NCBI RefSeq assembly: GCF_000829315.1
Contig: NZ_AP013028.1
Location: 1,218,061 to 1,250,060 of the forward strand
From: Wolbachia endosymbiont of Cimex lectularius
GTDB taxonomy: Bacteria; Pseudomonadota; Alphaproteobacteria; Rickettsiales; Anaplasmataceae
Direction of reading: 5' to 3'
DNA: 32,000 nt
Shown in pieces: positions 6,217 through 28,061 of the stretch. Position numbers and translations under genes: made by a program. The stretch's first letter is position 1, and the number at the start of each line of letters is the position of its first letter. The notes beneath the pieces are model-generated. The model made no database searches. It was not told the origin of the DNA and saw only the letters and a program-made list of their open reading frames with translations.

Positions 6217-6330
6217 TTTTTTCAAACTGCTCTTGACTTATATTACTTGGATAACTTTTCTGCATAGACACCTCATTATTAATCTATGCTTACTTTACCT
6301 CACATTTTCAAGATTTTAAACAGGTTCTTA
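6128..6330 (-). repeat. inverted partial copy (~202 bp) of the IS left end
   Basis: The reverse complement of 5266-5468 matches 6128-6330 with a single mismatch by eye (cttggaaatg vs cttgaaaatg). It abuts the right IR of the full IS directly. Confidence 0.85.
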
Positions 6331-11095: not shown

Positions 11096-11287
11096 CGTTT
11101 TTATTGAGATTATCTATGCATAATAAGTTGTAATGAGAGTAAAATCAATTCATCGATCTAAATATTAATATATAAATTATTTAGTATAATAAAAGTAATA
11201 CTTACATAAAAATTTTAATAAAAAGACATAGACTGAAACTTTCGATTTGCTAGTATAGTGAATATTAATAAATTTAGGAGTAGATGT

Positions 11288-12337
11288 ATGACAAAAAGAT
11301 CAAAAAACGCCTCGCGAAGGGAAGAAATGACACCGTTTGAGGGAAGGGAAACAGTTACTATTTTTTCTAGCTTGGAAGACATAGAAAAAGGAAGAAAAAT
11401 ATACTTTTCATTAAAAGGAGAGGGTTTAACAATTGATGCTTTTAGTATATCTGACAATTCATACAGGTTACACTTTGTTGTTGGGATGACAAAAAAGATT
11501 CCCACTCCTGAAGGGCATTGTAGATTGATGATTAATAATATTATTTCAGATCTGAAGAGTGGGAGAATAAAAAGCAAAACAGAGTATGATTTCAGAAAAT
11601 TCGACGAAAGATATCTAAAAGATCTAAAAGGACTTTTAAGTCAAAAGACTACGACAACTAGTTTACAGGAAGAATCTACTACTGAAGAAGTTGAGCATGA
11701 GACGCAGGCTACTGGGGTTACTGATAGTACAACAACAGAATTATTTAATTCTAGCCAATCGGAAAGACCTACTACTGAAAAAGTTGAATATGAGGCGCAA
11801 GAAGATAGCGAATATTTCGCTGTAGAACCAGCTCCTTTAAAACAACAAAAACTTGATCTTGCACCAGATGAAACAACTGAAGAGATCAAACACGTAATGG
11901 AAGAAATAAAAAGGTCGAATGCTAGTCATGGAATTACAACTGAAAGTATAGAATATGCTAGGGATATGACAAGAAAAGATGTTGCTTTTTCCTTTAGTAA
12001 AGTCACGTCAAGAAACGTACCAGCATTTTCTGAGTTGAGTAGTACAAATGCGACATTACCTCAATTGTCAAACGAATCAGGGATTGCCGGCACAACAGTA
12101 GCAGGATTATCAACATTGAGTGCTTATATTATAGCACCAGTATTATTAGTAGCTGCTGTTACTGTGGGTGGATGCTGGTTTTTGCGTAAACAGAAGAAAG
12201 AAGATAGTTACGATGTTGAAAAAGCTGGTGTAGAAAATGAAGTAGAAGCTCCATTCTCTGAAGAGCAAAATTCTCTGCTTGATGAAGTAAACATTGAGCC
12301 AGGAACATATCGATCTTTCCGACTTGATGATATTTAA
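11288..12337 (+). CDS. hypothetical membrane-anchored acidic Thr/Glu-rich protein
   Basis: The ORF track starts at GTG 11258, but ATG 11288 lies 7 nt after an AGGAG (11276-11280). It has a single TM near the C-terminus (IIAPVLLVAAVTVGGCWFL) followed by a ~50-aa tail. Internal repeats are TTEEVEHETQA and TTEKVEYEAQE. Confidence 0.6.
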   Translation: MTKRSKNASRREEMTPFEGRETVTIFSSLEDIEKGRKIYFSLKGEGLTIDAFSISDNSYRLHFVVGMTKKIPTPEGHCRLMINNIISDLKSGRIKSKTEYDFRKFDERYLKDLKGLLSQKTTTTSLQEESTTEEVEHETQATGVTDSTTTELFNSSQSERPTTEKVEYEAQEDSEYFAVEPAPLKQQKLDLAPDETTEEIKHVMEEIKRSNASHGITTESIEYARDMTRKDVAFSFSKVTSRNVPAFSELSSTNATLPQLSNESGIAGTTVAGLSTLSAYIIAPVLLVAAVTVGGCWFLRKQKKEDSYDVEKAGVENEVEAPFSEEQNSLLDEVNIEPGTYRSFRLDDI

Positions 12338-12570
12338 TCAGTATGTAAAAGCCGCCATACTAAACTCTATTTATAAATTTTATAGGGTAGGAACGGAGGA
12401 AGGATGGTGGCTTAGATTACGATATGGAATTACTTAAGAGCACTCGTGAAAGTATGCGTATCAAGTAGTGATAAATGGTTTAAACATAAACTGAGTAATT
12501 TGCTCCTAAAGGCTTTTAGATTAGATCTCTTGCATAACCTAAACTAAGCAGAGAAAAAGCAAAGATTGTT

Positions 12571-12653
12571 AGGGTGTCATCCAAGTACCGAAATCCAAGA
12601 AAAAGGACGGTGTCATCCCAGCGCCTCCTTTCTTGTCATTCCAGTGCTTGACA
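12571..12653. repeat. cluster of palindromic-repeat half-units
   Basis: gggtgtcatccaagtaccg ... ggtgtcatcccagcgcc ... cttgtcattccagtgcttgaca. The last unit is interrupted by the MITE-like element. Confidence 0.7.
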
Positions 12654-12882
12654 CACAGCTGTACGAACATTGCAATTAGCAGGTAATTTGCGTAACAGAT
12701 GGTGTTATCCCAGTGCTCCGACACTGGGATCTAGCCTTTCCATAATCATCAAAAACGTCGTATTTTAACATAAAACAGCTACTTTTATACTCACCAACTT
12801 AATAAAATTCCTGGATGCCAGTGTCAGCTACTTGCATGACACCCTAGTGGTAGGCTCAAATCACAATGTTCGTACAGTTGTG
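12654..12882. mobile_element. MITE-like nonautonomous element (229 bp)
   Basis: 19-bp TIRs: cacagctgtacgaacattg at 12654-12672 and the reverse complement of 12864-12882 (18/19 match). It is flanked by the 9-bp direct repeat tgcttgaca (12645-12653 and 12883-12891). No ORF is present. Confidence 0.65.
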
Positions 12883-12905
12883 TGCTTGACACTGGAATCT
12901 AGGAT

Positions 12906-13412
12906 ACTACTTTAGTTATAAATATTTAAGGAATTTACCAAGCGAAAAAAAAGCAAAAGAAGCCCTGGTCAATATCTATTTTAATAACTTGGCGTTAATG
13001 TTCTATACGTTTGACAAGTAGCTGACCTTGGGGTTGTAAATACCCATAATTTATGATAAGGGAAACGTCAAAACTTGTCAAGCAATTTTTTTGTGAAAAA
13101 AATGAGATTGGTTAAATTTTTAACTAATTTTAAAAAAAGACAAAAAAAACCCTGCAACGTGAGTTGTTTACTGTTCTCTCAAAAACTTGGCGTCCGGTTC
13201 TCTCTTACACCGCTTAATAAGCGAGGTCCAGCTAATGTAGACAAAAAATTATAAAGACATGCAGTGTCCATGCTGCAAAAATAAAACATAACACGCCTTG
13301 TTTTATACTGTGCTTTTGTCACTTAATACAAGATTAAAGATAAATTTTAGGCCTAAAACACCCACAATTCTATTGCAAGGGGACTGGCGCAGGTTGTCAA
13401 GTAGTTTTTTTA
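12906..13412 (+). repeat. noncoding module, copy A (ends 80 nt upstream of dnaE start)
   Basis: Near-identical to the reverse complement of 27121-27620. It is homologous to 23126-23598 but more diverged. It ends in ggttgtcaagtagttttttt. Confidence 0.85.
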
Positions 13413-13491
13413 TGTCGGAACTCTTGAACAAGTTTTTGTTCCTCATGAGTAAATTAATGCTATTCTTTTATTACTGGTCTGAAGTTTTTTT

Positions 13492-16400
13492 ATGTTCATA
13501 CACTTGCGTGTTCACAGTGTTTATTCACTGCTTGAGAGTTCGGTCAAAATTGAGGAGCTGAGTAGCCTTTGTTTGCGGAATAAAATGCCAGCAGTTGCGA
13601 TAACTGATTCAGGTAACTTATTTGGCTCACTCGAGTTTGCAGAATATGCGGCAAGTAGAGGAATACAGCTAATAATAGGATGCAATATTATAGTTCGACG
13701 CTCAGAGCAAAATCTACCCATATTATTGCTTGCAAAAAACGAGCGAGGGTACGCTAATTTGGTCACTTTGGTGAGTGAGTCCTTTAGAAAGCGCGAAAAT
13801 AGCAACGATATTCCTTACGTTGATTTTAATGAGCTATTAAGTTTAAGTTCAGGCCTAATCGCCTTAACCGGTGGATATGACGGCATATTGGCTCAACTGT
13901 TGTTGAAGCAAGATAAAGAAACGATAAAAAGACTACTCTTAGCATTCAATGGTCATTTATATGTTGAATTGCAGCGTCATGGGCTTAGTAAAGAGTTGGA
14001 GCTCGAAGAAACCTTAATAGACTTTGCTTATCAGCACGATATACCGCTGGTTGCAACGAATGATGTATTTTTTCCCAACAGGTCTGACTATGAGGCTTAT
14101 GATATATTAACGTGCATATCAGAAGGAAGTTATGCTCTCGAGAATAACAGAAAGAAGCTAACTACTGAGCATTATTTCAAATCTGTGGCGGAAATGGAGG
14201 AGTTATTTAGCGATATCCCCGAAGCGATTTATAATACCTCAGTAGTAGCCAGACGGTGCTCTTACATGCCAAGAAGTAGGCAGCCTATTTTGCCTAAATT
14301 TCCTTGTCGAGAGAATAAAACTGAGAATGAAGAACTGAAGGAACAGGCAATTGCGGGGTTGGAACTCCGTATTGCACAATCTTCTTCTGTCATTCCAGCG
14401 CGTGACGGTGGAATCCAGGAAAAAAGAAATATGGATCCCAGTGTCAAGCACTGGGATGACACCCATGATGTTGATTTTAAGCAATACCACGATCGGCTAA
14501 ATTACGAACTAAGCGTAATAACTTCAATGAACTACGCTGGCTACTTTTTGATAGTTTCTGATTTCATTCGTTGGAGCAAAGCAAATGGCATTCCAGCTGG
14601 TCCAGGAAGAGGTTCTGGTGCTGGATCAATTGTTGCTTGGGCGCTGCAGATTACAGATCTTGATCCAATAAAATTTGGTCTGATCTTTGAAAGATTTTTA
14701 AATCCTGATCGTATATCAATGCCTGACTTTGACATCGATTTCTGCCAGGAAAAGAGAGATTTAGTTATTGACTATGTTCGTAAGAAGTATGGTTATGTTG
14801 CTCAGATAATCACTTTTGGAAAATTACAGGCAAGAGCTGTGCTGCGCGATGTTGGAAGGGTATTGCAGATGCCTTACGCTCAGGTGGATAAAATATCTAA
14901 AATGGTTCCGTTTAATCCGGTAAACCCTGTAACTTTATCACAAGCGATAGAGCTTGATCAAAATCTGCAGAAAGAAAGGGATAGCGATGAAGTAATTGCA
15001 AAACTCCTTGATATCTCTCTTAAGCTTGAGGGGATATATCGTCACGTTTCAACTCATGCGGCTGGAATTGTGATATGCGATCAAAAGTTAGAAAATTTTG
15101 TTCCTGTTTATTATGATCCAAATTCAGCTCTACCAATTACTCAATACAGCATGAAATATGTGGAGAAAGCTGGACTAATAAAGTTTGATTTTCTCGGACT
15201 TGGTACACTGACGCTGATAGATCATGTATGTCGTTTAATTAATTGTAATGAAAGAAAAATTGATATTTCCTCGGTTCCTTTAGATGATCAGAGAACCTAT
15301 GAAATGCTCTCAAGAGGTGATTCAATTGGAGTGTTCCAGCTTGAAAGTTCGGGAATGAGAGAAGCTTTAATCAAGCTAAAACCAGACTGTATTGAAGATA
15401 TCATCGCTTTGATTTCCCTTTATCGTCCAGGGCCGATGGATAACATTCCAACTTATGTTGCAAGAAAGCACGGGCTTGAAAAGCCAGATTATATTCATCC
15501 ATTACTCGAGGGGGTATTAAAAGAAACATTTGGAGTAATAATCTACCAAGAGCAGGTGATGGAAATAGCGCGTATTCTTTCTGGATATAGCTTAGCTGAA
15601 GCAGATCTACTGAGGCGTGCTATGGGTAAGAAAATCAAAGAAGAGATGGATAAACAACGTGAACTTTTCATCCAAGGAGCAACGAAAAATGGTGTTGATT
15701 ATGATAGGGCAAGTTATATTTTTGACCTTGTTGCAAAATTTGCTGGTTATGGATTTAATAAATCTCACGCAGCTGCATATGCAGTGATATCTTACCAAAC
15801 AGCTTACCTTAAAGCTAATTATCCATTGGAATTTTTCACAGCCTTGATGAATTTGAATATCGATGACAGAGACAAACTGAATTTATTTTATCATGCTGCA
15901 AAATTCAGTGGAGTTTCTGTTCTTTCACCTGATATAAACAAATCTAAAGCTGAATTTTCAATAGAGGGTGAACGCATACGCTACGGCATTGCTGCTTTGC
16001 GTAATGTTGGTTTTTCTATAGCAGAAGGAATAGTGAACACACGTTCAAGCGCTTATAAGGACATATGGGAATTCATTCAAAATTCGGGTCATATAATAAA
16101 TAAAAGAGTATTAGAAAGCCTAATTAAGTCTGGAGCATGTGATAGTGTGCATCAAAACAGAAAGCAGCTATATGAGTCAATAGACACATTGGTTTACTTT
16201 GCAAATAAAAATAGGCAGGATAAGGAATCGAATCAAGCTGTTTTGTTTGGCAATCTTGATGTTCTCAAGCCAAAACTTGAGGATGTAGAAGACTTCAATG
16301 AAGAGGAAAAATTAGAACATGAGTTATTTTCGCTGGGATTTTACTTAACTAATCACCCACTTGAGAAATTTAGGGCCCTTTTGAGAAAATTAAATATTGG

Positions 16401-16908
16401 ATTTATCGGAGAAGGTAAGACGACAAAAACTGCTGGCGTAATATTAAATGCACGTATGAGGACTTCAGAGCGCGGAAGATTTGTTATACTCACGCTTTCT
16501 GATCCCCATAATGTTTCTGAAATAGCATTCTATAATAACGAAATAATAGAGGAGAAAAGAAACTTATTTTCGCCCGGAACATTTGTGATAATTGATCTTG
16601 AGGCTTCGGAGAATACGACAAGATTAGCAGGAAAGGATATATCTGAATTTACGGAAAGGATCACTTCTGTAATGAAGAGGTTAGTGTTAACTGGGTGTGC
16701 GGATTCACAAACAGCTGCTATGGAATTAAGTTCGGTACTGAAAGATGGAGGCAGAACCAAAATCATGCTGGAACTTCTGCTTGAAAAGCATAAAGTGAGC
16801 ATCTTGTTACCAGGTGCATATTCAATCACCCCTCAAGCTGTTTGTGAGATATCCAATTTAAGCTGGATTAAAGGCATAGAAATTGATACAAATAGCTTGC
16901 TTATATAA
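13492..16908 (+). CDS. dnaE: DNA polymerase III alpha subunit
   Basis: 1138-aa ORF with N-terminal PHP motif HLRVHSVYSLLES, GPGRGSGAGS, PDFDIDF and FNKSHAAAYA. It carries one in-frame palindromic-repeat insertion. Confidence 0.95.
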   Translation: MFIHLRVHSVYSLLESSVKIEELSSLCLRNKMPAVAITDSGNLFGSLEFAEYAASRGIQLIIGCNIIVRRSEQNLPILLLAKNERGYANLVTLVSESFRKRENSNDIPYVDFNELLSLSSGLIALTGGYDGILAQLLLKQDKETIKRLLLAFNGHLYVELQRHGLSKELELEETLIDFAYQHDIPLVATNDVFFPNRSDYEAYDILTCISEGSYALENNRKKLTTEHYFKSVAEMEELFSDIPEAIYNTSVVARRCSYMPRSRQPILPKFPCRENKTENEELKEQAIAGLELRIAQSSSVIPARDGGIQEKRNMDPSVKHWDDTHDVDFKQYHDRLNYELSVITSMNYAGYFLIVSDFIRWSKANGIPAGPGRGSGAGSIVAWALQITDLDPIKFGLIFERFLNPDRISMPDFDIDFCQEKRDLVIDYVRKKYGYVAQIITFGKLQARAVLRDVGRVLQMPYAQVDKISKMVPFNPVNPVTLSQAIELDQNLQKERDSDEVIAKLLDISLKLEGIYRHVSTHAAGIVICDQKLENFVPVYYDPNSALPITQYSMKYVEKAGLIKFDFLGLGTLTLIDHVCRLINCNERKIDISSVPLDDQRTYEMLSRGDSIGVFQLESSGMREALIKLKPDCIEDIIALISLYRPGPMDNIPTYVARKHGLEKPDYIHPLLEGVLKETFGVIIYQEQVMEIARILSGYSLAEADLLRRAMGKKIKEEMDKQRELFIQGATKNGVDYDRASYIFDLVAKFAGYGFNKSHAAAYAVISYQTAYLKANYPLEFFTALMNLNIDDRDKLNLFYHAAKFSGVSVLSPDINKSKAEFSIEGERIRYGIAALRNVGFSIAEGIVNTRSSAYKDIWEFIQNSGHIINKRVLESLIKSGACDSVHQNRKQLYESIDTLVYFANKNRQDKESNQAVLFGNLDVLKPKLEDVEDFNEEEKLEHELFSLGFYLTNHPLEKFRALLRKLNIGFIGEGKTTKTAGVILNARMRTSERGRFVILTLSDPHNVSEIAFYNNEIIEEKRNLFSPGTFVIIDLEASENTTRLAGKDISEFTERITSVMKRLVLTGCADSQTAAMELSSVLKDGGRTKIMLELLLEKHKVSILLPGAYSITPQAVCEISNLSWIKGIEIDTNSLLI
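14389..14461. repeat. palindromic repeat element, in frame within dnaE
   Basis: gtcattccagcgcgtgacggtggaatccag ... atggatcccagtgtcaagcactgggatgaca, translated as VIPARDGGIQEKRNMDPSVKHWDDT. Confidence 0.85.
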
Positions 16909-16956
16909 AAAAGCTTTATATAATGAAATATTTAATCGGTATTAAAGGAAAGTATA

Positions 16957-17730
16957 GTGAATCTTTATGAATTTACTTTTATAGCACAACAGGGCTTATT
17001 ACAGCAAGAAGTAGAAGAAATGGTCCAGGAACTAGGTGTTTTATTGAGGAACATTAAAGCAGATATTATGCTTCAGCAAATCAAGGGTATTCTAAATGAC
17101 AAGCCCGCGCAACAGGAATCAGAGGTGCGTGCTAAAAACATTCAAGAAAGTTTAGTTGATTATTCTAATTTTTTGGAAGGTTTTGCAAAAATTCTATGGG
17201 TCGAATTAGAAAAAGATCTTTCAAATTTGAAAGAGGTAGAATCAAAAATTGATAAGGAATTGAAGGGTAGTCTAAAAGGTCTGGGAATAACACAAGATTT
17301 TATAAAACTTCCAGGGGGTGGTAAGCAAATTGCTAAGAATGCGTTTATTCGCAATACAATAAATACTTTAAAGGAAAATATTTCAGAGCATCTAATAAAG
17401 ATTTTTCAAGAGGTTTTAACAAGTTCCAAAGTAACAGAGCAAAATCGATTGAGTAAAGCATTAGAGGCGCTTTTAGGAAATGTTGAAGCTTCAGGATTGA
17501 TAAAGTATGAATATTGGGGTCTATTAGACTTTGCGTATCCGATAAATAAGATGAAGAGTGGTCATTATTGTATAATGTGCGTGAGTTCTACTTCAAGTAT
17601 TATGGATGAATTTGTGCGTAGAGTAAAGCTTAACGAAAATATCATTCGCCACTTGTCTGTTCGGGTTGATAAATTTTTTGAAGGTAAATCTCATATGATG
17701 AATAAACAAATTGAGGAGCAAAGCGCATAA
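16957..17730 (+). CDS. rpsF: 30S ribosomal protein S6 with a large internal insertion
   Basis: GTG start. The N-terminus (MNLYEFTFIAQQGL) and YEYWGLLDFAYPINKMKSGHYCIM match S6, and the gene sits directly upstream of rpsR-rplI. It is 257 aa, against the ~100-135 aa usual for S6. Confidence 0.85.
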   Translation: MNLYEFTFIAQQGLLQQEVEEMVQELGVLLRNIKADIMLQQIKGILNDKPAQQESEVRAKNIQESLVDYSNFLEGFAKILWVELEKDLSNLKEVESKIDKELKGSLKGLGITQDFIKLPGGGKQIAKNAFIRNTINTLKENISEHLIKIFQEVLTSSKVTEQNRLSKALEALLGNVEASGLIKYEYWGLLDFAYPINKMKSGHYCIMCVSSTSSIMDEFVRRVKLNENIIRHLSVRVDKFFEGKSHMMNKQIEEQSA

Positions 17731-18005
17731 TGACAAGAAAACGAAGTAATTTTAATGATTCTTATGTATCTGTAAATAACAGGACTGGGTTTAGGCGTTC
17801 TAAAGTTTGTCCTCTTGCTGCGTTGGGAGATGAGGAAATAGATTATAAGAATACGGATTTATTATCCAAATATATCTCTGACTATGGTAGAATATTACCT
17901 AGAAGATTAACAGGTGTGTATGCAAAAAAACAGAGGAAATTGCGCTTAGAAATCATAAGGGCACGTTTTTTATCTCGTATTCCTTACTGTACTAAAAAAG
18001 TTTAG
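17730..18005 (+). CDS. rpsR: 30S ribosomal protein S18
   Basis: 91 aa with IDYKNTDLLSKYISDYGRILPRRLTG..KKQRKL. Its ATG overlaps the rpsF stop (TAATG). Confidence 0.9.
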   Translation: MTRKRSNFNDSYVSVNNRTGFRRSKVCPLAALGDEEIDYKNTDLLSKYISDYGRILPRRLTGVYAKKQRKLRLEIIRARFLSRIPYCTKKV

Positions 18006-18012
18006 GTAATTT

Positions 18013-18498
18013 ATGTTAGTAATTTTAAAGGAAAATATAAGGACTCTTGGTAAGTTAGGCGAAATTGTGAAGGTGAAGCCTGGCTATGCACGCAATTTTC
18101 TTTTTCCACAAAAGAAGGCAGTTAAAGCTACTAAGGAGAGTATAGCAAAACTGGAGGAGCAGCGTTCCTTTTTAGAAGAGGAGAACATAAGAAAATTGAA
18201 TTTGGCAAAAGAGCTAGCAGCGTCTCTTGCTGGTAAGTTTGTGGTGTTAGTAAAGCAAGCTTCTGAGGATGGCAAAATTTTTGGTTCTGTAACAACAAGA
18301 GAAATTGCGAAATCTTTGCTGCAGGAGTGTGAAATTGATCACCGTAAAATATCCTTTAATGGAGCAAAAATAAGAAACTTAGGTGAGTATCAAGTGGGTA
18401 TAGAACTTCACAGTGAAGTAGTGGTACCAATCACTGTTCATGTTGTAAGGTCAGAAACAGATGCGCATGAGTTAAGACAGGTAAAATTACAAAGCTAA
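18013..18498 (+). CDS. rplI: 50S ribosomal protein L9
   Basis: 161 aa with N-terminal domain MLVILKENIRTLGKLGEIVKVKPGYARNFLFPQKKA. Confidence 0.9.
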   Translation: MLVILKENIRTLGKLGEIVKVKPGYARNFLFPQKKAVKATKESIAKLEEQRSFLEEENIRKLNLAKELAASLAGKFVVLVKQASEDGKIFGSVTTREIAKSLLQECEIDHRKISFNGAKIRNLGEYQVGIELHSEVVVPITVHVVRSETDAHELRQVKLQS

Positions 18499-18557
18499 AA
18501 GTCACAGCAACAAGAGAGTCAGACTGCAGAGCAAGAAGACATAAACGATAAGTAACC

Positions 18558-18600
18558 CCTTTCTTATCATCCCGATCCCTGTCCAACTAGCTGACACTTG
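18558..18600. repeat. degenerate palindromic-repeat remnant
   Basis: cctttcttatcatcccgatccctgtccaactagctgacacttg resembles the cctttcttgtcattccag and gtcagctacttg parts of the repeat family. Confidence 0.35.
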
Positions 18601-19022
18601 AAGTTGCTTGCGCTGCTTTATCTTTTCTCGAATGAATCATTACTAATTCATTAACACATCCTATTAAAAACCTAGAATACAACCATTGATCAAGTTATAA
18701 AATAATGGGTCAATCAGTAAATTTTTCGTTAAAAGTGTCGGCCAAAAGCCGCTCTGGGCAAGGTTTCGCGGGTGGGTTTTGCAGCAAGCAAAAATGTGTT
18801 TGCGTAATGTCCCATAGCAGGCTATAATAGACACAATATCAAATACTTAACAAAGAAAAAAAGAAAAGCAATAGCTGAGGGAAAATCAATGCTCACAAGG
18901 ATAAATTTAAAGAGACAGATGTTAAAACAGGTTGAAAATCTCGAAATAAATAGAGAAGATATTATTGAAAGGTTGTACAGTGTATGTATAATATACATAA
19001 CATAAAACTTTATAAAAGTTTA

Positions 19023-19051
19023 TTGACAACTTTACAATTAAGACTTATTAA
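19023..19051 (+). promoter_or_regulatory. sigma70-like promoter candidate for ORF 19100
   Basis: TTGACA (19023-19028), a 17-nt spacer, then TATTAA (19046-19051). It lies ~50 nt upstream of an AGGAG-type RBS and ATG 19100. Confidence 0.5.
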
Positions 19052-19099
19052 ATATTTGGTGCTGTAAAATTGAACTAATAAAATGTTAAAGGAGCAAAA

Positions 19100-20638
19100 A
19101 TGGTGAAGGATTTTCCAAAAGACAGCTGTAATTTAAGCGATAGCTCAATCTACAAGGCACTTATCAGAGAAGAAGACATAGCCGCAAATCAAAAGCTCCA
19201 AGAGATTCAAGGAGCTGCAGACGAGTTTGCTAGACAGGCAATTATTAATAAATTAAGACAAGCGGAGATCGAGCACGAGAAACTTAAACTAGAGTTTGAG
19301 CAGGAAGCTTCTGACAGAGTCGATAACATCCTATCCTATGTCGAGCTGAGTGCTGCAGAAAATGAGGAAAATTTTACAAGTGGTATAGATGGTTTGCTGG
19401 TGAAGCTTTTTAAATTTTTCAACTTCATGGATAGCGAGCTTGGAGTAGAGACAGATCCGCAAGTCTACGGGATGGTAAAGGATCGGGAAGAAAAGGAAAC
19501 TTGGCTTGCTGCGATAATAAAGTTTTTACGGGATAAATTTAATAAGCTAATCAAGGCAATCTTCTCTCGCGATTTGAGTTTCAGGGAACAGATTGATAAG
19601 GAGATAGGAAAGCTATTTGAGAGATTGTTCGGTGATAGTTTATCCCAGGAAGAGGAGGCAGCAATATTGGAACGTCTTGAGGCTCTTCGTAATCTGAAAT
19701 TAAAGCTTCAAATGTTTGTGGCTGGCTCAGTTATTACGGTGTTTATCGAGCTCTTTTCAGTTGAGCTCACAGCTTCAGTAGAAACAACCAAAGAAGAAGG
19801 TAAAGAAAAAACATCAGCGAAAGAAAAAGAAGCAACTAAAGAAGTTCATGAAATTATGGAAATAAAGTTGGATACGAAAGGGAGATATCAAATCGTCGTT
19901 TCAAGTTATCTTCTCGACTTTTCATCTGGTGTTGCAAGGCCAATCACTCTGACCAAGCAAGAGCTTGATCTTTTGCCAAAACCTCTGGCAAATTTGGTGC
20001 ATCGTGTGCAAGAATATGCTACAAGTAAGGAAAATAGTTGGGTAAAAGAAACAAAAGTGAACGAAAATAAGCAAGCGAAACAACCAGCGCAAAAACCAAA
20101 TGTAGCTGCACGTCCAACAAAAGAGCCGGGAAAAGTGCCTGGGACGAGTGGGGTGAAATTTTGTTTCAAGTCTTATGGAGAATCTATTAATTTCAACACA
20201 AGGCGTTCAAATGCTAATGTTAATAGTGTTAATGGGAAAAAACCCGAGTCTAATAATAAGCAAGAAAATAAGTTTGCCGGTTCCGAAAGGAAGCTTCTAA
20301 ATAATGATGTTAATAGCATCAACAAAGAAGGAGGCAAGTCTACTAATGGTCAAAAAGCAGATAGCTCTTATGCTAAACTTGCAACAAAAGCTGCTGAGAG
20401 GAACGCCAGAAAAAAATGTGCTGAAGCATCTACCAAGCACGATTATCCAATTGATCATTTTCAAGTTCCATCGGAAACTAATGGAAAGTCTCATGCTAGT
20501 GCTGAGCGTGAACCTAAACCTAAACAGAGTTCTGTGAATAATGCTCAACCAACAGGTGAGTGTAGAGATGTAAAAATTAATAATCATGTAGAATCAATAG
20601 GAAAGACACAAAAAGAAGCATTATCGAGGAGTAGATGA
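19100..20638 (+). CDS. hypothetical protein (orphan): coiled-coil N-terminal half, Lys/Asn/Ser/Pro-rich C-terminal half
   Basis: 512-aa ORF with an ATG preceded by aaaggagc. It has a central hydrophobic stretch (MFVAGSVITVFIELFSV). I recognise no family. Confidence 0.6.
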   Translation: MVKDFPKDSCNLSDSSIYKALIREEDIAANQKLQEIQGAADEFARQAIINKLRQAEIEHEKLKLEFEQEASDRVDNILSYVELSAAENEENFTSGIDGLLVKLFKFFNFMDSELGVETDPQVYGMVKDREEKETWLAAIIKFLRDKFNKLIKAIFSRDLSFREQIDKEIGKLFERLFGDSLSQEEEAAILERLEALRNLKLKLQMFVAGSVITVFIELFSVELTASVETTKEEGKEKTSAKEKEATKEVHEIMEIKLDTKGRYQIVVSSYLLDFSSGVARPITLTKQELDLLPKPLANLVHRVQEYATSKENSWVKETKVNENKQAKQPAQKPNVAARPTKEPGKVPGTSGVKFCFKSYGESINFNTRRSNANVNSVNGKKPESNNKQENKFAGSERKLLNNDVNSINKEGGKSTNGQKADSSYAKLATKAAERNARKKCAEASTKHDYPIDHFQVPSETNGKSHASAEREPKPKQSSVNNAQPTGECRDVKINNHVESIGKTQKEALSRSR

Positions 20639-20720
20639 CATGAGGAGTAGGACCATGTGAAATCAATAGGAAAAGATGAGAAGACAGTAGAGATGTCTTG
20701 ATAAATTGTTACATCCTATG

Positions 20721-20775
20721 GGCTACTTGGATGACAAAGAGGATGTCATTCCAGCGTGTGACGCTGGAATCTGGG
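20721..20775. repeat. intergenic palindromic repeat element
   Basis: ggctacttggatgaca ... gatgtcattccagcgtgtgacgctggaatctggg. Confidence 0.75.
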
Positions 20776-20824
20776 AGTATAAAAAAAACGAACAAAAATT
20801 TTTGAAAAAAAATAAAAAAAGTAT

Positions 20825-20853
20825 TTGCATTGATAATTTACTTGTAGTATACT
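20825..20853 (+). promoter_or_regulatory. sigma70-like promoter candidate for ORFs 20884 and 21124
   Basis: TTGCAT (20825-20830), a 17-nt spacer, then TATACT (20848-20853). It lies ~30 nt upstream of ATG 20884. Confidence 0.5.
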
Positions 20854-20883
20854 AATTACATAATATTTTTACTGGGGGTTAAT

Positions 20884-21087
20884 ATGCCAAACAATAACGA
20901 TAAAAAAGATAGTGGCAGTTCAAAAGGGTTTATTCCAAGTGACAGATTTGAGAAATACACTGGTCCTAACAAGGAAATACGTGATCAGTATGCAAAGTGG
21001 CAGCACGAACGTGAAAGTAGCAAGCCTAATACACAATTTGGTAGTAGTAGTGCTACTGGTGCCGGCAGTAGTAAAGGTAAAAGTTAA
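20884..21087 (+). CDS. small hypothetical Ser/Gly/Lys-rich protein (67 aa)
   Basis: ATG preceded by gggggtt. It lies 36 nt upstream of the next ORF on the same strand, downstream of a promoter-like site. The sequence is low-complexity and I recognise no family. Confidence 0.45.
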   Translation: MPNNNDKKDSGSSKGFIPSDRFEKYTGPNKEIRDQYAKWQHERESSKPNTQFGSSSATGAGSSKGKS

Positions 21088-21123
21088 TAATGTTGTTTAG
21101 TAACAATTTTAGTAGGGGTAGTT

Positions 21124-22980
21124 ATGAGTAATTCAGTAAAAGAGCTGGTCAATGCGTTTAATTTAAATAATTATGCTATTGATAAAGTTAACACTAACTT
21201 TACTGTAGAAGATAAAAAGAAAAAGATTGTTGGTTTATTTGCTAGCGATACTAATGTAGAGGAATATCTGCGGGAAGTAGGAGAGAAGGTAATAAAGCTG
21301 CACTATCGCACTAGAGAAGCGGCAAGTGAATATTATAACTTGCGGTGTTTTCCGTTTGTTTTAGGTACTAATGCTGATAAAAGGTATTTAGGTAAAGGTG
21401 TAATGGCAGTGGAGCTTGCAGATTCTGCAAATAAGGAAGTAATCCGTAACTTGAAGCTTCATTTTGTTAATGAATTTGAGAGGGTTATAGGGTTTCAAGT
21501 GATTGCAAGCCTAAGAGAAGAGGGAGTGACAGAGGAAGAAGCACGTAAGTGGGCAGAAGGAACTATACAAGTGGGAGCAATAAGTAGGTCTCTTCCTTAT
21601 CTGTGCTGTATAGCTTTTAGTGACGAGTACTTTAAGAGAGAGGAATATGATTCAGAGACTTTTGAGTTGTTTAAAGGAGTGTATATTCAAGAATTTAACT
21701 CAAGATTAAGAAAGTGTGGTCTTAAGAACTCGGATTTTTATGAATATAGGAATGGTATGTTGTACATTAAGGATGTTAGTGATAAGGTAGTCAAAAATGT
21801 GACAGAATATGTTAAAAAAGAAATAGCATTTGATTTTAGAACTCCAGGTAGTGTAGAGTCTAAAGTTGAAAATTGCAAAAATGTTCTTAATGATCTAATT
21901 TTTAAGTTTACGGGGAAATTAATTTATGGCTATGATTATGATGTCTTTACAGATGCAAAAAAAATAAAGTATGGTAATAGTTTTGCTCTTATACCTTTTA
22001 TAGAAGTGAATGGTCAGCTGCAATCTTTAAGCAAGGAAGATGTAGGTAAAATTAATAGCAAGTTAGGTGATGTTATAAGCGATATTAGAGGCAAAACTGA
22101 AAATCCACAATTTGCTAATTGTAAAGAGCCAGTGTATGCTATCTATAATAAAAGGATTACTCAGTTACTCCCTAGGATTATGGAGTCTCCAATTGCGTAT
22201 AATAGAGACTTTGAACGTTTTGAATTTGCAGTTAATCTTGAAAATCTTGGAAATCGGCAAAGGTCATTTTCACCCAATCCTGGTTCTGATGTGGAAGACT
22301 CACCAAGTTCATCACTTAACAAAACTGATTCTCCCATACGCTTCCCTAATCGATCTCCTTCTCTGTCGGAGGTAAATGGTTCAGTACGAAACGAGCCAGG
22401 GTACCGCGATTCTGTAGCTTCCAAAGGTTCCGAATTTTCCAAAAGAAGTAGTGGCTATTATTCAGAATCAGCGTCTTCAGTTGCTGATGCAGAGCCTAGT
22501 GCAGGACCTAGTACGAGGCCTAGTGATGAAAATTGGTTCTTTCGCGATTCTCCACGGGTTTCGTCGATGAGTAGTTCTTCAACTAGCGATTCTATATCAA
22601 GCAATGCGTCAGTTGGCACTGTTTTATCAGGTAAAGGTGGTTTACCCCACTTTAAGGCACAGTTAACGGGACCTGCGGGTTTTCCTGCTGCACGATGTAC
22701 TAAAGCTATGAAGGGAGTACCTACTGCAGTCGATAGTTTCAAATGTTCAGTGCATGGGCTAAGTGCTGTTACTGGTACAGCGACATTTGTCCCTGTTTCT
22801 GTCTCACATGTAAAGCCTGTGGGTTTTGAATATTTGAGGCATGATGAAAGTACTATAAAGAAATTTCTAGCAAATGGTGAAAGGGAGTGGGGTCGTTCTG
22901 GACAATCTGAGCATCGGTGGCAAGATGAAGAAAAACGTAGGTCTTCTACAAAACAGGCCACAAAGGAAAGGGTTTATTAA
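21124..22980 (+). CDS. hypothetical protein (orphan): ~370-aa AT-rich N-terminal domain plus Ser/Pro-rich GC-richer C-terminal region
   Basis: 618-aa ORF with an ATG preceded by taggggtag. I recognise no family. Composition shifts near nt 22260. Confidence 0.65.
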   Translation: MSNSVKELVNAFNLNNYAIDKVNTNFTVEDKKKKIVGLFASDTNVEEYLREVGEKVIKLHYRTREAASEYYNLRCFPFVLGTNADKRYLGKGVMAVELADSANKEVIRNLKLHFVNEFERVIGFQVIASLREEGVTEEEARKWAEGTIQVGAISRSLPYLCCIAFSDEYFKREEYDSETFELFKGVYIQEFNSRLRKCGLKNSDFYEYRNGMLYIKDVSDKVVKNVTEYVKKEIAFDFRTPGSVESKVENCKNVLNDLIFKFTGKLIYGYDYDVFTDAKKIKYGNSFALIPFIEVNGQLQSLSKEDVGKINSKLGDVISDIRGKTENPQFANCKEPVYAIYNKRITQLLPRIMESPIAYNRDFERFEFAVNLENLGNRQRSFSPNPGSDVEDSPSSSLNKTDSPIRFPNRSPSLSEVNGSVRNEPGYRDSVASKGSEFSKRSSGYYSESASSVADAEPSAGPSTRPSDENWFFRDSPRVSSMSSSSTSDSISSNASVGTVLSGKGGLPHFKAQLTGPAGFPAARCTKAMKGVPTAVDSFKCSVHGLSAVTGTATFVPVSVSHVKPVGFEYLRHDESTIKKFLANGEREWGRSGQSEHRWQDEEKRRSSTKQATKERVY

Positions 22981-23125
22981 TTTATTCACTACAACTAACC
23001 AAGGTCAGGGCTTTTGTCTTGGCCCTCTGGGGTTGTTTCTAAGCAAAAACTCAAATTAGACAAGAAGGTTTGAGCAAATTGGATCAGCTATATTTTTAAT
23101 ATTGGCGTTTTTTGTGTACTCTTGA

Positions 23126-23598
23126 ACTACTTTAGTTATAAATATTAAGAAATTCACCAGGCAGAAAAAAAGCAAAAGAAGCCCCGGTCGGTGGCTAATT
23201 ATTTATATGTACCTCAAATATCGGCGTTTTTATTCTCAACGCTACGATTCAGCTACTTTTAAATGCAAATAACCAAAACTGTAAACGTTAAGAAATTTAC
23301 TAAGCAGGAAAAAAAGCAAAAAAGCTCTGAGGCAACTAGTATTCAAATTCTCCCTTGTCTATTTGACGTTCTATACTGTCTTAAACGACTTATAGGCGCG
23401 TTTCAGCTTGTATAGGTAAAAACCTAGAAGTCTAGGTAAAATTAATAAAGACATAAGGTGCACATAGTGCAAAAATTTAAACATGAGACGCCAAATACCC
23501 TAAGTTTTTTGTCATTAACCTGCACAGATTGCGAAGATAAATAAATAGCTTCAGTACTGTGATAATGATATTGGCAAAGGTTGTCAAGTAGTTTTTTC
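23126..23598 (+). repeat. noncoding module, copy C (diverged; tandem ~130-140-bp subunits)
   Basis: It starts with actactttagttataaatattaagaaattcaccaggcagaaaaaaagcaaaagaagcccc, matching 12906-12968. It ends with ggttgtcaagtagtttttt, as copy A does. Confidence 0.7.
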
Positions 23599-23748
23599 TC
23601 ATTTCTATTGGGTAGCTTTTTTCCACTGCTGTCCATCCACTTTCTGTGTAGTGAGGATTGGTATTAGAAAAAGCCGTAGCACAAAAGTCTTGAAGCTTAG
23701 TGCAAAAGTTTATCAAAGAAATTTTAATATTGTGATCAGCATGCATAT

Positions 23749-24774
23749 TTACAACTCTAAACCTGGTAAATTCCCAGTAAAAAGTAGCACTCCTGAGATG
23801 AGTATTAGCCAAAGTACTGATATTGGCAGAAACACTTTCCAACCAAGACGCATTAGCTGATCATATCGATATCGAGGTATTGTTGCCCTAATCCAAATAA
23901 ATATGAACAACAATAAAGCTATTTTCAAGACAAACCAAATTAAACCTGGAATTTTATACAAAAAACTAAGCTCTAGAGGAGGATGGTATCCTCCTAAGAA
24001 AAATATTGTCATCATAGCGCTCGCTAAGATCATGTTTGCATATTCTCCCAAGAAAAAGAGGGCAAAAGGCATTGATGAATATTCAACATTATACCCAGAG
24101 ACAAGCTCTGCTTCAGCTTCTGGTAAATCAAACGGATGACGGTTAGTTTCTGCAAGAAGAGAGATAAAAAACACTATTGCCATAGGTATGAGTAGTAGAT
24201 CAACCCAAAATGGCATATTATGCTTTGTTACTACCATTTCTCCGAGATTTAGCGTGCCAGTTGTAACAACAACTGTGGCAACTATTAAGCCTATCGAAAC
24301 TTCGTATGAGATCATCTGGGCAGCTGACCTTATAGCGCCAAGAAACGCGTAATTGGAATTACTTGCCCAGCCTGCAATAATAATGCCATATACCTCTAAA
24401 GAGGATACAGCTAGCACATAAAGTACTCCAACATTAATATTTGCTATCACCTTAGGAATTACTGTCTGTTGCCCGTTTTCTATAATTACTTCAGCACCAA
24501 ATGGTATAACTGCCCAGGCGATTAATGCTAAAATAAAGGTGAGCATCGGAGCCATGATGAACAATATGGTATTTGCCCTAAATGGTATTATCGGCTCTTT
24601 AATCAGTAATTTAATTGCATCTGCAAATGGCTGTAATAGTCCAAAAGGTCCAACGACGCTTGGACCATGTCTTAGCTGAATTGCACCAATAAATTTGCGT
24701 TCGAAGTACACCAAATATGCTACTGAGAGCAGTAACGGCACCAAAACAAATAAAATGTTAACTAGCGTGTCCAT
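23749..24774 (-). CDS. nuoH: NADH-quinone oxidoreductase subunit H
   Basis: 341 aa, multi-TM, with [27 protein letters not shown] and [18 protein letters not shown]. Confidence 0.95.
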
Positions 24775-26806
24775 AGAAAGCCTTGGTACAATCTGCCATT
24801 ATTTTTGAAGCGCGGCTTATGGAATCTGTCATATAAAAATTATATTCTTTTAGGGCGAAAGGCGCACTGCTTAGTTTTATCTCGTCGCAGGTAATTGGCA
24901 CCCATTTGTTTTTTATCACCTGGTCAGCGTTTCTAAACTGTGGGCCTATAGTATCTAATTTTTTTTTCACGTCAAATAAACTATCATATGGGAAGGAGAG
25001 GCCCAGATATTGCGACAAATTTTTAATAATCAACCAGTCTTCCTTTGCTTCACCAGGGGGAAATACAGCTAAATTTGTTCTCTGCACTCGCCCTTCAGTA
25101 TTCACATAAGTTGCATATTTCTCTATGTATGTAGCTCCAGGTAGAATAACATCTGCTATATGTGCCCCTCTATCGCCATGATGACCTTGATAAATTACAA
25201 ATGTATTTTCTAACTTTGATGTGTCAATTTCATCTGCACCGAGAAGATAAACAGCTTCTATATCGCCACTTTCTGCTTGCTTTAGTATTTGGTTAGTGTC
25301 TTTTCCACCTTTTTGGGGAACAAATCCAATATCTAATCCACCAACTCGTGCTGCGGCTTTGTGCAGCACATTAAAACCATTCCAGTCATCTTTGACCATG
25401 TTAAAATTTTCTGCAATTGTGCCAGCTAAAGCTAAAATTGATTCGGAATCATCTCTTGTTAATGCATCTTGACCGATGATGATCATAGGGTTTTTAGCAG
25501 CGCTTAGCAGCTTGCAAAATTTGTGATTTCCTTTCGCTATTTCATTTAAAATGCTAGGATTATCGCCTAGCTTCTCAACATGATACAAATATTCAATGTC
25601 AGGACCAATGCTTGCAATAGGAAAGTTGCCTTGTAAATATCTTTTTCTTATACGTGCATTAATAATTGGTGCCTCTACTTTAGGATTTGTGTTTATAAGC
25701 AGGCATAAATCTGCATTCTCTATACCCTGAGTAGTGGTGTTGAACACGTATGATCCACGATTATTTTGTATAAGCTTTGCTCCATCCTGCCTACAATCTA
25801 TATTTGCTGAGCCAAGCTTATGCATCATTTCTTTTAGTAGAAGCATAGACTCACAATCCGCAAAATCACCTGCAATTGCAGCTATTTTGTTTGGCTTTGT
25901 ACTTCTTAGTTTTTTTGCAGCAACAGTTAGTGCTTCATTCCAATCAACCGGTGTTAATTTACCATCTTTCTTTATATAAGGTTGGTCAAGGCGTTGCACT
26001 TTTAGTCCATCGTAAGCAAAACGAGTTTTGTCTGATATCCATTCCTCATTCACTTCTTCATTGAGTCTTGGCAATATTCGCATCACTTCCGGACCGCGAT
26101 AATCGACTCTGATCGCACTTCCCACAGCATCGAGCACATCTATAGTTTCGCAATGTGATAGATCCCATGGACGCGCCTTAAATGAGTAAGGTTTTGAAGT
26201 TAAAGCTCCTACAGGGCAGAGGTCTATGATATTTCCAGATAACTCGGAGCTAATATGCCTTTTTATGTAAGTGCTGATCTCTACATTTTCTCCTCTACCA
26301 ATTCCTCCAAGTTCGTTTGTACCTGCAACATCAGACAAGAACCTAACGCATCGAGTGCAATGGATGCATCTATTCATTGCAGTTTCAATAAGTGGCCCAA
26401 AATGCTTTTTTGGTACAGCCCTTTTATGTTCATCAAGTCTGCTAGTTCCCTTTCCATAGGCCATTGTTATATCTTGCAAATCACACTCACCACCTTGATC
26501 ACAAATTGGGCAATCAAGCGGATGGTTAATTAGCAAAAACTCGAGCACTCCTTCACGTGCCTTTTTGACTTTTGGGGTATCAGTATGAATAATCATACCC
26601 TCTGCAACTGGTATTGCGCAAGAGGCTACTGGTTTTGGAGGTCCGCCTTCCACTTCAACCAAACACATTCTACAGTTACCGGCGATTGCTAAGCGCTCAT
26701 GATAACAAAAGCGTGGAATTTCAACGCCCACAGCTTCACAGGCTTGGATTATAGTAAGCCCAGCCTCTACTTCACATTCCTTAGAGTTAATGGTAATCTT
26801 AACCAC
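24758..26806 (-). CDS. nuoG: NADH-quinone oxidoreductase subunit G
   Basis: 682 aa with the 2Fe-2S region [19 protein letters not shown] and Fe-S motifs [14 protein letters not shown] and [10 protein letters not shown]. Its 3' end overlaps the nuoH start by 17 nt. Confidence 0.95.
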
Positions 26807-26819
26807 AAATTTAAACCCA

Positions 26820-27029
26820 CTATACAGCTTCCCACTTTATAGGATTACCACTTTCGTCTTGAACGAGACTACCATCCCCATATTCAGCGGACATATAATT
26901 CATACGTGAGTCGCGATCTATATATCTAACTGGTTTTACCGGTTTATCTTTATACATTTTTTGCTTAGCTTTCTGACGCTGAGTAGGGTTATTTTTACTA
27001 GCTGTTTTCGCTTTTCCGCCTGCTGCCAT
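26820..27029 (-). CDS. small basic hypothetical protein (69 aa), first gene of the nuoG-nuoH unit
   Basis: ATG lies 5 nt after a strong AGGAG. It ends 13 nt upstream of nuoG on the same strand, with a promoter-like site upstream. I recognise no family. Confidence 0.6.
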   Translation of the reverse strand: MAAGGKAKTASKNNPTQRQKAKQKMYKDKPVKPVRYIDRDSRMNYMSAEYGDGSLVQDESGNPIKWEAV

Positions 27030-27055
27030 ATGAACTCCTAAAAACTTCTCATTTT

Positions 27056-27083
27056 ATTTTAGCACTTAAGTGTACAGCGTCAA
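27056..27083 (-). promoter_or_regulatory. sigma70-like promoter candidate for the small ORF-nuoG-nuoH unit
   Basis: On the minus strand: TTGACG (27083-27078), a 16-nt spacer, then TAAAAT (27061-27056). It lies ~27 nt upstream of ATG 27029. Confidence 0.5.
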
Positions 27084-27120
27084 CATTAAATAACTTTAAA
27101 GTTTCAATGGATATCTAAAA

Positions 27121-27620
27121 ACAAAAAAACTACTTGAAAACCTTCGTCAATCCCCCTACCATAGTATTGTGGGTGTTTTAGGCCTAAAATTTATCTTTAA
27201 TCTTTGTATTAAGTGACAAAAGCACAGTATAAAACAAGGCGTGTTATGTTTAATTTTTGCAGCATGGACACTGCATGTCTTTATAATTTTTTGTCTACAT
27301 TAGCTGAGCCTCGCTTATTAAGCGGTGTAAGAGAGAACCGGACGCCAAATTTTTGAGAGAACAGTAAACAACTCACGTTGCGGGGTTCTTTTTGTCTTTT
27401 TTTTAATTAGTTAAAAATTTAACCAATCCCGTTTTTTTCACAAAAAAATTGCTTGACAAGTTTTGACGTTTCCCTTATATTATAAATTATGGGTGTTTAC
27501 AACCCCAAGGTCAGCTACTTGTCAAGCGTACAGAGCATTAACGCCAAGTTATTAAAATAGACATTGACCAGGGCTTTTTTTTCTCTATTCGGTAATTTCT
27601 TAATATTTATTGCTAATTGT
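27121..27620 (-). repeat. noncoding module, copy B (inverted relative to copy A)
   Basis: Its reverse complement aligns by hand with 12930-13412, with about 20 differences over a ~415-nt core. It ends 92 nt upstream of ATG 27029. Confidence 0.85.
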
Positions 27621-27640
27621 AATTCATGAATTGAGTAGGA

Positions 27641-27921
27641 GGGTGTCATGCCAGTGCTTGACACTGGCATCCAGGAATTTTATTAAGTTAGTGAGTATAA
27701 AAGTAGCTGTTTTATGTTAAAATACGACGTTTTTGATAATTATGGAAAGGCTGGATCCCAGTATCAAGTACTGGGATGACAAAAAAAGGGGCTACTCGGA
27801 TGACAAGAAAAGGAGTGCTGAGATGACAAGAAGATGGCACTGGTATGATAAGAAATGTGCTACTTTCATGACACTCTTCCAGTGAGGGTTGCTCTTAAAC
27901 TATAATGTTCGTACAGTTGTG
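27641..27921. repeat. palindromic-repeat cluster with a ~21-bp half-unit array and one MITE-type terminal repeat
   Basis: gggtgtcatgccagtgcttgacactggcatccagg at 27641-27675 and ctggatcccagtatcaagtactgggatgaca at 27751-27781. Five ...atgac(a)aga... half-units follow to ~27880. aatgttcgtacagttgtg lies at 27904-27921. Confidence 0.75.
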
Positions 27922-28061
27922 GGCTAAAAAACCATTCAAACAATAGTTTAGAGAGTTACTCAAACCTAGAAATCAGATCTTAGCCAACCAGCTCAGAGAA
28001 TTACTCCTTGTCATTTGTAGTGTACTGCATTAATATTTACGTGTTAATCCAGAAGATATTG

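Follow-up and report, generated by a model that had tools for sequence, protein, structure and literature searches.

Two inverted noncoding modules bracketing dnaE and nuoGH in a Wolbachia genome as probable members of two dispersed, self-transcribed repeat families

Introduction

In a 32,000-nucleotide (nt) stretch of the chromosome of the Wolbachia endosymbiont of Cimex lectularius (NZ_AP013028.1, positions 1,218,061 to 1,250,060; hereafter the window, with position 1 as its first letter), two similar noncoding modules face each other in inverted orientation, one upstream of dnaE (module A) and the other upstream of s69, a 69-residue open reading frame (ORF) that precedes nuoG and nuoH (module B). 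Is this pair a device by which the genes between its arms are inverted, as an initial annotation had suggested, or is it something more common in these genomes? We conclude that the modules are very probably ordinary members of two Wolbachia-wide families of self-transcribed noncoding repeats, and that a programmed inversion is probably not associated with them. The larger of the two repeats, an element of about 0.5 kb, is of moderate interest as a family in its own right; the pair in the window is ordinary Wolbachia repeat biology.

Results and Discussion

Each module joins two unlike repeats

The existence of two homologous inverted noncoding modules was borne out by our alignments, in which they form an inverted repeat of about 0.7 kb that is far beyond chance and extends over 12719-13411 (+) and 27123-27766 (-). 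An ungapped repeat search returned arms of 82-245 nt at 90-94% identity, and in gapped pairwise alignments (Table 1) the 466-nt core (12946-13411 versus 27590-27123) is 94.0% identical with 4 gap positions, in agreement with the roughly 20 differences in about 415 positions that had been counted by hand. The core is separated from the aligned left part by an unalignable middle of ∼100 nt in A (12849-12945) and ∼45 nt in B, and the outer 150 nt (12560-12718 versus 27767-27925) have only short palindromic units in common, the left margin of A (12560-12684) being only 53-73% alignable to module B. As annotated, the repeat stops shortly before both start codons, 80 nt before that of dnaE (13492) and 93 nt before that of s69 (27029), and the modules occupy the whole spacers upstream of the two genes, in the same orientation to each.

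When module A was compared by BLAST with the loci fetched from other genomes, the matches fell into two independent sets, at ∼12910-13411 and at ∼12615-12885. The first set has a left boundary near 12910 and a very sharp end at 13410/13411, found in 48 matches at other loci. On this pattern of matches, the module is a composite of two unrelated repeat types placed tail to tail, and not one unit. Nor is the pair unique within the window, since a third, more diverged copy of the 0.5-kb element (copy C), missed in the initial annotation, lies downstream of nuoH; with it, s69-nuoG-nuoH is bracketed by inverted copies, and the genes from dnaE through the 618-residue ORF o618 by direct copies.

The 0.5-kb element is a dispersed Wolbachia family

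A profile hidden Markov model (HMM) of the 0.5-kb element, built from 89 copies in other genomes and searched with nhmmer, finds exactly three copies in the window (A, B and C). A 30-nt pattern from the inner part of the element occurs at more than 120 loci, all of those listed being in Wolbachia or in metagenome-assembled genomes (MAGs) labelled "Rickettsiales bacterium" that carry Wolbachia-like genes, and nhmmer searches of 8-kb pieces sampled from two complete Wolbachia chromosomes detected at least 20 copies in one and at least 19 in the other. Contigs of several MAGs have copies at their ends.

We found no meaningful Rfam match for the element, no match in a phage genome collection, and no exact match of its pattern among 2.9 million viral contigs; a phage origin was rejected on the latter two results. 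A coding role was rejected as well: small ORFs, MFNFLHYVHLMSLLISPRLLGFSLYKLKRAYKSFKTV among them, are shared by copies of one subfamily, frame and stop codon shift between subfamilies, and no ORF keeps its frame across them.

Many dispersed intergenic copies that lack coding capacity, as found here, are a trait of miniature inverted-repeat transposable elements and of elements of the Correia type. The Correia repeat-enclosed elements of Neisseria measure 100-155 bp, end in clear terminal inverted repeats and duplicate a TA target; like the Wolbachia family, they are dispersed and intergenic, act as promoters, give rise to transcripts and are linked to rearrangements. The 0.5-kb element differs from them in being a promoter-to-U-tract unit, for which terminal repeats and target duplications were not demonstrated; its ends share ACTACTT and a few further bases (∼11/15, judged by eye).

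Full-text searches of the literature, with promoter-motif strings and with Wolbachia plus 'miniature inverted-repeat', returned no description of the 0.5-kb family, and in the literature so searched we found no earlier account of it as a family. The wMel genome is reported to contain many repeat families, with repeats at rearrangement breaks and 45 copies of family 8 alone (Wu et al. 2004, PMC368164); those without similarity to known elements resemble the 0.5-kb family in being multi-copy intergenic repeats of no assigned function. Identity of the 0.5-kb family with any of them was not established.

The promoter is conserved and its start site is mapped in wMel copies

Every copy opens with an A-tract followed by TTGACA, 17 nt and TAnnAT, read on the strand opposite dnaE. 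Among 123 copies retrieved through a pattern inside the transcribed body, a sample hence unbiased for the promoter, 107 carry TTGACA (with at most one mismatch), 16-18 nt and TAnnnT at 79-93 nt upstream; TTGACA is perfect in 101 of the retrieved copies and the spacer measures exactly 17 nt in 105, while the same promoter pattern occurs in 9% of random segments. Column conservation is 0.99 in the -35 box and 0.91 in the -10 box, compared with 0.76 in the spacer. The 0.5-kb family appears to be among the commonest promoter-bearing units in Wolbachia genomes.

The start of transcription has been determined experimentally for copies in wMel. Two clones from 5' rapid amplification of cDNA ends (RACE), IGR-1021 and IGR-1047 (PMC4349823, supplementary Table C), match the family HMM (E = 2e-57 and 6e-54, respectively), and the first base of each aligns with position 23552 in copy C, 7 nt downstream of the -10 box. 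The sequence of the IGR-1047 clone extends past the first U-rich tract and contains the GTAAATTTCTTAA block; the two clones differ from the window copies in belonging to other subfamilies, being 72-80% identical to copy C and less similar to A and B. Their authors did not name them small RNAs (sRNAs), and the main text makes no mention of a repeat family (PMC4349823). The primers for five further regions, IGR-392, IGR-446, IGR-921, IGR-1035 and IGR-1049 (PMC4349823), also contain family motifs. From this homology we infer transcription of the copies in the strain studied here.

By homology with the wMel RACE 5' ends, unit 1 of copy A is predicted to start at 13365 and has its T-rich end at 13132-13152. 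The promoter of unit 2, which is found in all copies of the A-type subfamily, has a predicted +1 near 13046, followed by a T-rich end at 12944-12965 and a conserved 3' block at 12910-12939. In both A and B, the strong promoters would fire away from dnaE and s69, converging with the transcript expected from the second repeat.

The second repeat resembles ncrwmel01/WsnRNA46

The left 175 nt of each module resemble ncrwmel01, a mapped wMel RNA whose RACE clone sequence is given in supplementary Table C of Woolfit et al. (2015, PMC4349823), and WsnRNA46, in having a long hairpin closed by TGTCATCCCAGTG...CACTGGGATGACA arms and, in modules A and B alike, a promoter-like site at matching distance. 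Both match the Rfam model RF02625 over its full length, yet with 44 and 54 bits they differ from accepted members in not reaching its gathering score (65.3 bits). Hits to the model arise on both strands and extend to shorter copies within ileS and dnaE that consist of arms only, so what it mostly recognises is the palindromic arms. The minimum free energy fold of 12685-12860 is a single long hairpin (-40.7 kcal/mol, z = -2.25) whose arms align to the stems of the model. The wMel ncrwmel01 5' RACE clone has aligned counterparts in both modules, 12751-12841 (88% identity) and 27734-27644 (91%); CATAAT boxes end at 12746 and 27739, 4-5 nt before the base aligned to the 5' end of the clone, and RNA starts are predicted near 12750 (+) and near 27735 (-).

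Palindromic elements of the WsnRNA46 type are also present at 2035-2141 (ileS), 3985-4038 and 14370-14480 (dnaE), inside intact ileS and dnaE frames. Two of them reach 60 and 54 bits, short of the gathering score, and the elements appear to be translated insertions.

Modules A and B are not a recent pair

The high identity of the modules had been taken to imply recent duplication, gene conversion or selection; the first two lose their ground once other genomes are considered, as A is as close to their copies as it is to B. Identity over 12946-13411 is 94.0% between A and B and 92.0-94.6% between A and copies from four other Wolbachia genomes, the copies in other species nearest to A reaching 94.6%, 94.4%, 94.4% and 94.2%, while B shares 90.6-93.1% with the same four-genome copies. 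The best-conserved central tract is 96.4% identical between A and B and 93-97% identical in every comparison; a conversion tract specific to A and B was rejected on this basis. As a neutral baseline, the flanking genes have a four-fold-site identity of 89-94% to the Gx481 MAG, ∼86% to Nx346 and ∼80% to the Wolbachia of Penenirmus auritus.

That A and B are recent duplicates, or are kept alike by converting each other, is in our view highly improbable. B does have its closest relative of the set in A (94.0% versus at most 93.1% for the others), and different subfamilies occupy the B site in other Wolbachia, which implies that this site was overwritten at some time; copies from other species, however, match A as well as B does or better, the similarity of the central tract is shared by all comparisons, and the 6% divergence of A from B is about the four-fold-site divergence from the Gx481 relative, which argues that the pair is not recent. 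The excess conservation seen in these comparisons appears to belong to the A-type subfamily and not to the A-B pair.

Bodies are replaced at fixed sites, and synteny breaks at the copies

Between genomes that share 95-98% identity in the flanking genes, the subfamily present at a fixed site differs. At the site before s69, the window has the GTGGGTGTTTTAGGCC type, and three other loci (L122, L126 and L084) have three different GAAGCTATT... types with identical flank and promoter; downstream of nuoH, four different bodies are found in five genomes, and one has a rearrangement. At neither of these two orthologous sites did we find a clean empty site, the alternatives being subfamily replacement or rearrangement.

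A comparison of synteny with related genomes, proposed in the initial annotation, did reveal breakpoints at these elements. In the Gx481 MAG, dapB-pstB-dxr take the place of the 359-residue ORF o359 and alaS after dnaE and its module, and purA is accompanied by an ncrwmel01-like element, without the 0.5-kb element and nuoGH. The genes found upstream of s69 are purA in this strain and in the Paracimex Wolbachia, TrcR-rho-gatB in four contigs of other genomes, and an IS110 fragment in one. Six other Wolbachia contigs are homologous to the window over ∼23428-27169, and this homology stops in or beside copies C and B, so that s69-nuoG-nuoH and its flanking copies C and B appear to be a conserved unit in relatives. 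The subfamily switching at fixed sites, together with the synteny breaks, points to ectopic recombination between copies.

One arrangement is seen in this strain

Recombination between the two modules would, by their geometry, invert the dnaE...nuoGH block (13412-27122 would flip), and this part of the earlier proposal stands; an inverted isomer was not seen. Contig JBPESZ010000002.1 of GCA_051710405.1 (38.9 kb), a 99.99% match to 8730-32000, extends across both modules and has them in the orientation of the window, with identical gene order over 13492..22980. GCA_051710345.1 is 100% identical over the portions covered, a contig of a Tyrophagus putrescentiae symbiont MAG is 99.9% identical to 12500-13511, and 10,278-bp contigs in three further assemblies equal 13277-23554, with ends inside module A and copy C. 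None of the assemblies of this strain that cover a junction has the inverted isomer; these are consensus assemblies, in which a minor isomer could go unseen.

The pair could still be read as an active inversion substrate, with the 13.7-kb block flipping and both orientations coexisting or alternating, and we consider this very unlikely. In its favour, the arms share 94% identity across 466 nt and contain perfectly matching stretches of sufficient length for RecA-type recombination, and relatives have rearrangement breakpoints at these elements. Against this, every junction-covering assembly has the arrangement of the window, and the sole order seen in this strain is alaS, o359, dnaE ... nuoH, nuoG, s69, purA ... 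glnA, with the same s69-to-purA junction in the Paracimex Wolbachia. No site-specific recombinase domain was found by Pfam in any ORF scanned, and no recombinase gene adjoins the arms; the only mobile-element protein among these ORFs is a split IS5-family transposase at 5325-6216. The arrangement resembles the inversions that occur between inverted copies of insertion sequences or of ribosomal RNA genes, in which inverted homologous arms of several hundred bp likewise flank a gene block; it differs from them in that the arms are noncoding transcription units and in that the inverted isomer was not observed.

Small transcription units that probably persist as repeated DNA

The most likely account of these observations is that the 0.5-kb family consists of small stand-alone transcription units that would persist as repeated intergenic DNA in either orientation. 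In each module, the first element, a homologue of ncrwmel01/WsnRNA46 of ∼175 nt with palindromic arms, would be transcribed from its own promoter towards the adjacent gene. The second, of ∼0.5 kb, would comprise an A-tract, a near-consensus sigma-70 promoter, a transcribed body of ∼240 nt that begins in a hairpin at +1, then a U-rich tract, and lastly a second unit of shorter length that has its own promoter in the A/B subfamily; the element would be transcribed away from dnaE and s69-nuoG, and the two RNAs of a module would converge. Copies would exchange sequence by ectopic homologous recombination, leading to cassette replacement at fixed sites, and as a by-product they would supply homology for chromosome rearrangements. 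Both recombination as the mechanism and the absence of a programmed inversion are what we infer from the patterns described above.

Several observations weigh against this account. Neither terminal inverted repeats nor target duplications nor empty sites were established for the 0.5-kb element. Part of the breakpoint evidence comes from short-read MAG contigs, which may be chimeric at repeats; even with this caution, the pattern of synteny blocks ending at these elements is consistent. Between genomes with just ∼80% identity at four-fold sites, the A-type copies agree at 92-96% of positions, and as this exceeds the identity at synonymous sites, neutral repeated DNA is insufficient as an explanation and either selection or recent exchange between strains is needed. 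On the side of RNA structure, RNAalifold yields almost no consensus structure (-1.7 kcal/mol), the z-scores of the folds are +0.66 (sense), +0.70 (antisense) and -0.44 (another subfamily), and the covariation of helices set by hand is marginal, with 38 of 500 shuffles reaching the observed score.

Three features of the transcribed unit, namely a hairpin at +1, a U-rich tract and a conserved GTAAATTYCTTAA 3' block, are all present in the alignment and the family consensus. The GTAAATTYCTTAA block (12925-12939 and 23250-23262) lies just after each U-rich tract and is the most conserved stretch outside the promoter, with at least 90% in several columns. In four helices set by hand, 88% of the cells are paired, compared with 29-42% when the partners are slid. 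The +1 helix, likewise paired in 88% of cells, has many one-sided changes to G-U on the transcribed strand and is weaker in A and B (6/7 pairs, mostly G-U). With fold, consensus and covariation signals this weak, a structured functional RNA is not demonstrated.

It is possible but doubtful that the family represents genes for trans-acting regulatory RNAs under purifying selection, with subfamilies as functional variants and recombination as an incidental matter. The promoter retains its hexamers and tolerates change in its spacer, the excess identity of A-type copies and the G-U changes in the +1 hairpin would fit such genes, and the primers of several wMel regions that Woolfit et al. chose for intergenic transcription match family motifs. 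On the other hand, thermodynamic and strong covariation signals were not found, no target or partner protein is known, and the high identity could equally reflect recent exchange between strains. Less likely still would be an elaborated form in which an RNA-gene family under selection has interchangeable bodies, swapped among fixed sites by gene conversion, that yield variable and abundant regulatory or host-directed RNAs, and in which the pairing with the convergent ncrwmel01/WsnRNA46-type RNA in A and B acts as a sense/antisense control unit; if so, Wolbachia, which is poor in transcription factors, would gain a variable set of regulatory or host-directed RNAs.

The copies are not placed as control regions of their neighbours

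The initial annotation had presented the modules as the upstream regions of dnaE and of the nuoGH unit. As control regions of these genes they are poorly oriented, given that both strong promoters of each module are directed away from dnaE and s69. Across the whole family, 25 of the downstream neighbours are co-directional with the copy and 32 convergent (p = 0.43), among upstream neighbours 53 are divergent and 70 co-directional, and the orientation of the copies relative to neighbouring genes is random, which argues against a general role as gene promoters. A portable promoter or shared regulatory region was rejected on the basis of this unbiased orientation.

It is correspondingly improbable that the modules serve as cis-regulatory regions common to dnaE and nuoGH for their co-regulation, or as portable promoters of downstream genes. 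They fill the entire spacer upstream of both genes in one orientation, the ncrwmel01-like promoter points towards the adjacent gene, the promoters of copy B point towards purA, 0.6-0.85 kb away, and the wMel IGR-1021 transcript is reported not to end within its intergenic region (PMC4349823, Table 4). To the directions of the conserved promoters and the lack of family-wide bias, which tell against such a role, are added the position of copy C at the 3' end of nuoH and a promoter-like site for s69 that lies outside the repeat.

The idea of a special invertible cassette with dnaE and nuoGH can thus be dropped in favour of arms that are ordinary repeats of Wolbachia intergenic DNA. The 0.5-kb family matters in practice: it breaks short-read assemblies, with contigs ending in copies in several MAGs, and transcriptome studies that drop multi-mapping reads discard it. 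Its description would aid assembly and annotation, the reading of "intergenic sRNA" candidates (Woolfit et al.) and studies of Wolbachia rearrangements.

Genes and other features of the window

The features of the window are collected in Table 1. It contains 0 Rfam families at the gathering threshold and 0 transfer RNA genes by ARAGORN.

Table 1. Repeats, predicted promoters and genes of the window; coordinates count from its first letter.
Feature	Coordinates	Strand	Evidence and remarks
Copy A, 0.5-kb element	12876..13425	-	E = 3.9e-105; two tandem units, sharp end 13411
Copy B, 0.5-kb element	27115..27616	+	E = 4.3e-99 over 27115-27808; same subfamily as A
Copy C, 0.5-kb element	23119..23618	-	E = 2.2e-121; other subfamily, downstream of nuoH
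Aligned block of A and B, 130-nt left part	12719-12848 vs 27766-27637		91.5%; gapped pairwise alignment
Aligned block of A and B	12946-13054 vs 27590-27482		90.8%; gapped pairwise alignment
Aligned block of A and B	13055-13127 vs 27479-27407		95.9%; gapped pairwise alignment
Aligned block of A and B	13129-13329 vs 27406-27206		96.5%; gapped pairwise alignment
Aligned block of A and B	13330-13411 vs 27204-27123		90.2%; gapped pairwise alignment
Left margin of module A	12560..12684		Short Wolbachia palindromic-element-type arms (TGTCATCCCAG... units); direct-repeat families D1, D2, inverted repeat I9
WsnRNA46/ncrwmel01-like element, module A	12685..12860	+	RF02625 full-length, 44.0 bits, E = 3e-6
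WsnRNA46/ncrwmel01-like element, module B	27625..27800	-	RF02625, 54.4 bits, E = 3.6e-9
Promoter-like site for ncrwmel01-like RNA, module A	12718..12746	+	CCGACA-17-CATAAT, promoter scan
Promoter-like site, module B	27767-27739	-	TTGATA-17-CATAAT, promoter scan
Putative unit-1 promoter, copy A	13372..13411	-	A-tract 13403-13411, TTGACA 13395-13400, 17 nt, TGCAAT 13372-13377
Putative unit-2 promoter, copy A	13053..13091	-	TTGACA-17-TATCAT (11/12; 13081-13053), A-tract 13085-13091
Putative promoter, copy C	23582-23587, 23559-23564	-	TTGACA (23582-23587), 17 nt, TATCAC (23559-23564); predicted +1 at 23552
Putative unit-1 promoter, copy B	27134..27162	+	TTGAAA-17-TACCAT; predicted +1 near 27169, towards purA
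Putative unit-2 promoter, copy B	27453..27481	+	TTGACA-17-TATATT, 11/12, promoter scan
Promoter-like site for s69/nuoG, outside repeat	27056..27083	-	TTGACG-16-TAAAAT with TG, promoter scan
ileS, alaS	window		Pfam
o359 (359-residue ORF)	11258-12337		
dnaE	ATG 13492	+	Pfam
rpsF, rpsR, rplI (S6/S18/L9)	between copies A and C	+	Pfam
Genes between copies A and C: dnaE, rpsF, rpsR, rplI, 512- and 618-residue ORFs	13492..22980	+	Pfam
o618 (618-residue ORF)	21124-22980		No Pfam match
s69 (69-residue ORF), nuoG, nuoH	23749..27029	-	Pfam for nuoG/nuoH
purA; glutamine-synthetase fragment (glnA)	window, right side		Pfam

The 512- and 618-residue ORFs (19100-22980) have no Pfam match, and their order is kept across the assemblies of this strain; the 618-residue protein has a 46%-identical relative in the Wolbachia of Tettigetta isshikii (L046). 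An exact look-up of o359 returned no match. The rpsF ORF as mechanically called (16957-17730) encodes 257 residues, of which only 165-236 form the S6 domain; in a near-identical contig (L131), the rpsF gene call is 111 residues long, and the long N-terminal extension may not be translated. dnaA directly follows the glutamine-synthetase fragment in contig L121 (1-877), which places the end of the window ∼1 kb from dnaA.

A remnant of an IS5-family element is found at 5266-6330, in which the transposase is split (DUF4096, 5325-5645; DDE_Tnp_1, 5764-6216) and the inverted arms are unusually long (213 nt, 98% identity); it is also a dispersed repeat and terminates contigs in several MAGs.

The small ORF s69 (26820-27029, -) has no Pfam match, is always found immediately upstream of nuoG, and is 100% identical in at least 22 contigs from Wolbachia with 2-5% divergence in nuoG; it seems to encode a genuine, conserved small protein. 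In one lineage, sampled by metagenome and Logan contigs (L122, L124, L125 and L127), nuoG is split into ORFs of 107 and 568 residues and nuoH is cut to 265 residues, which suggests decay of the complex I genes.

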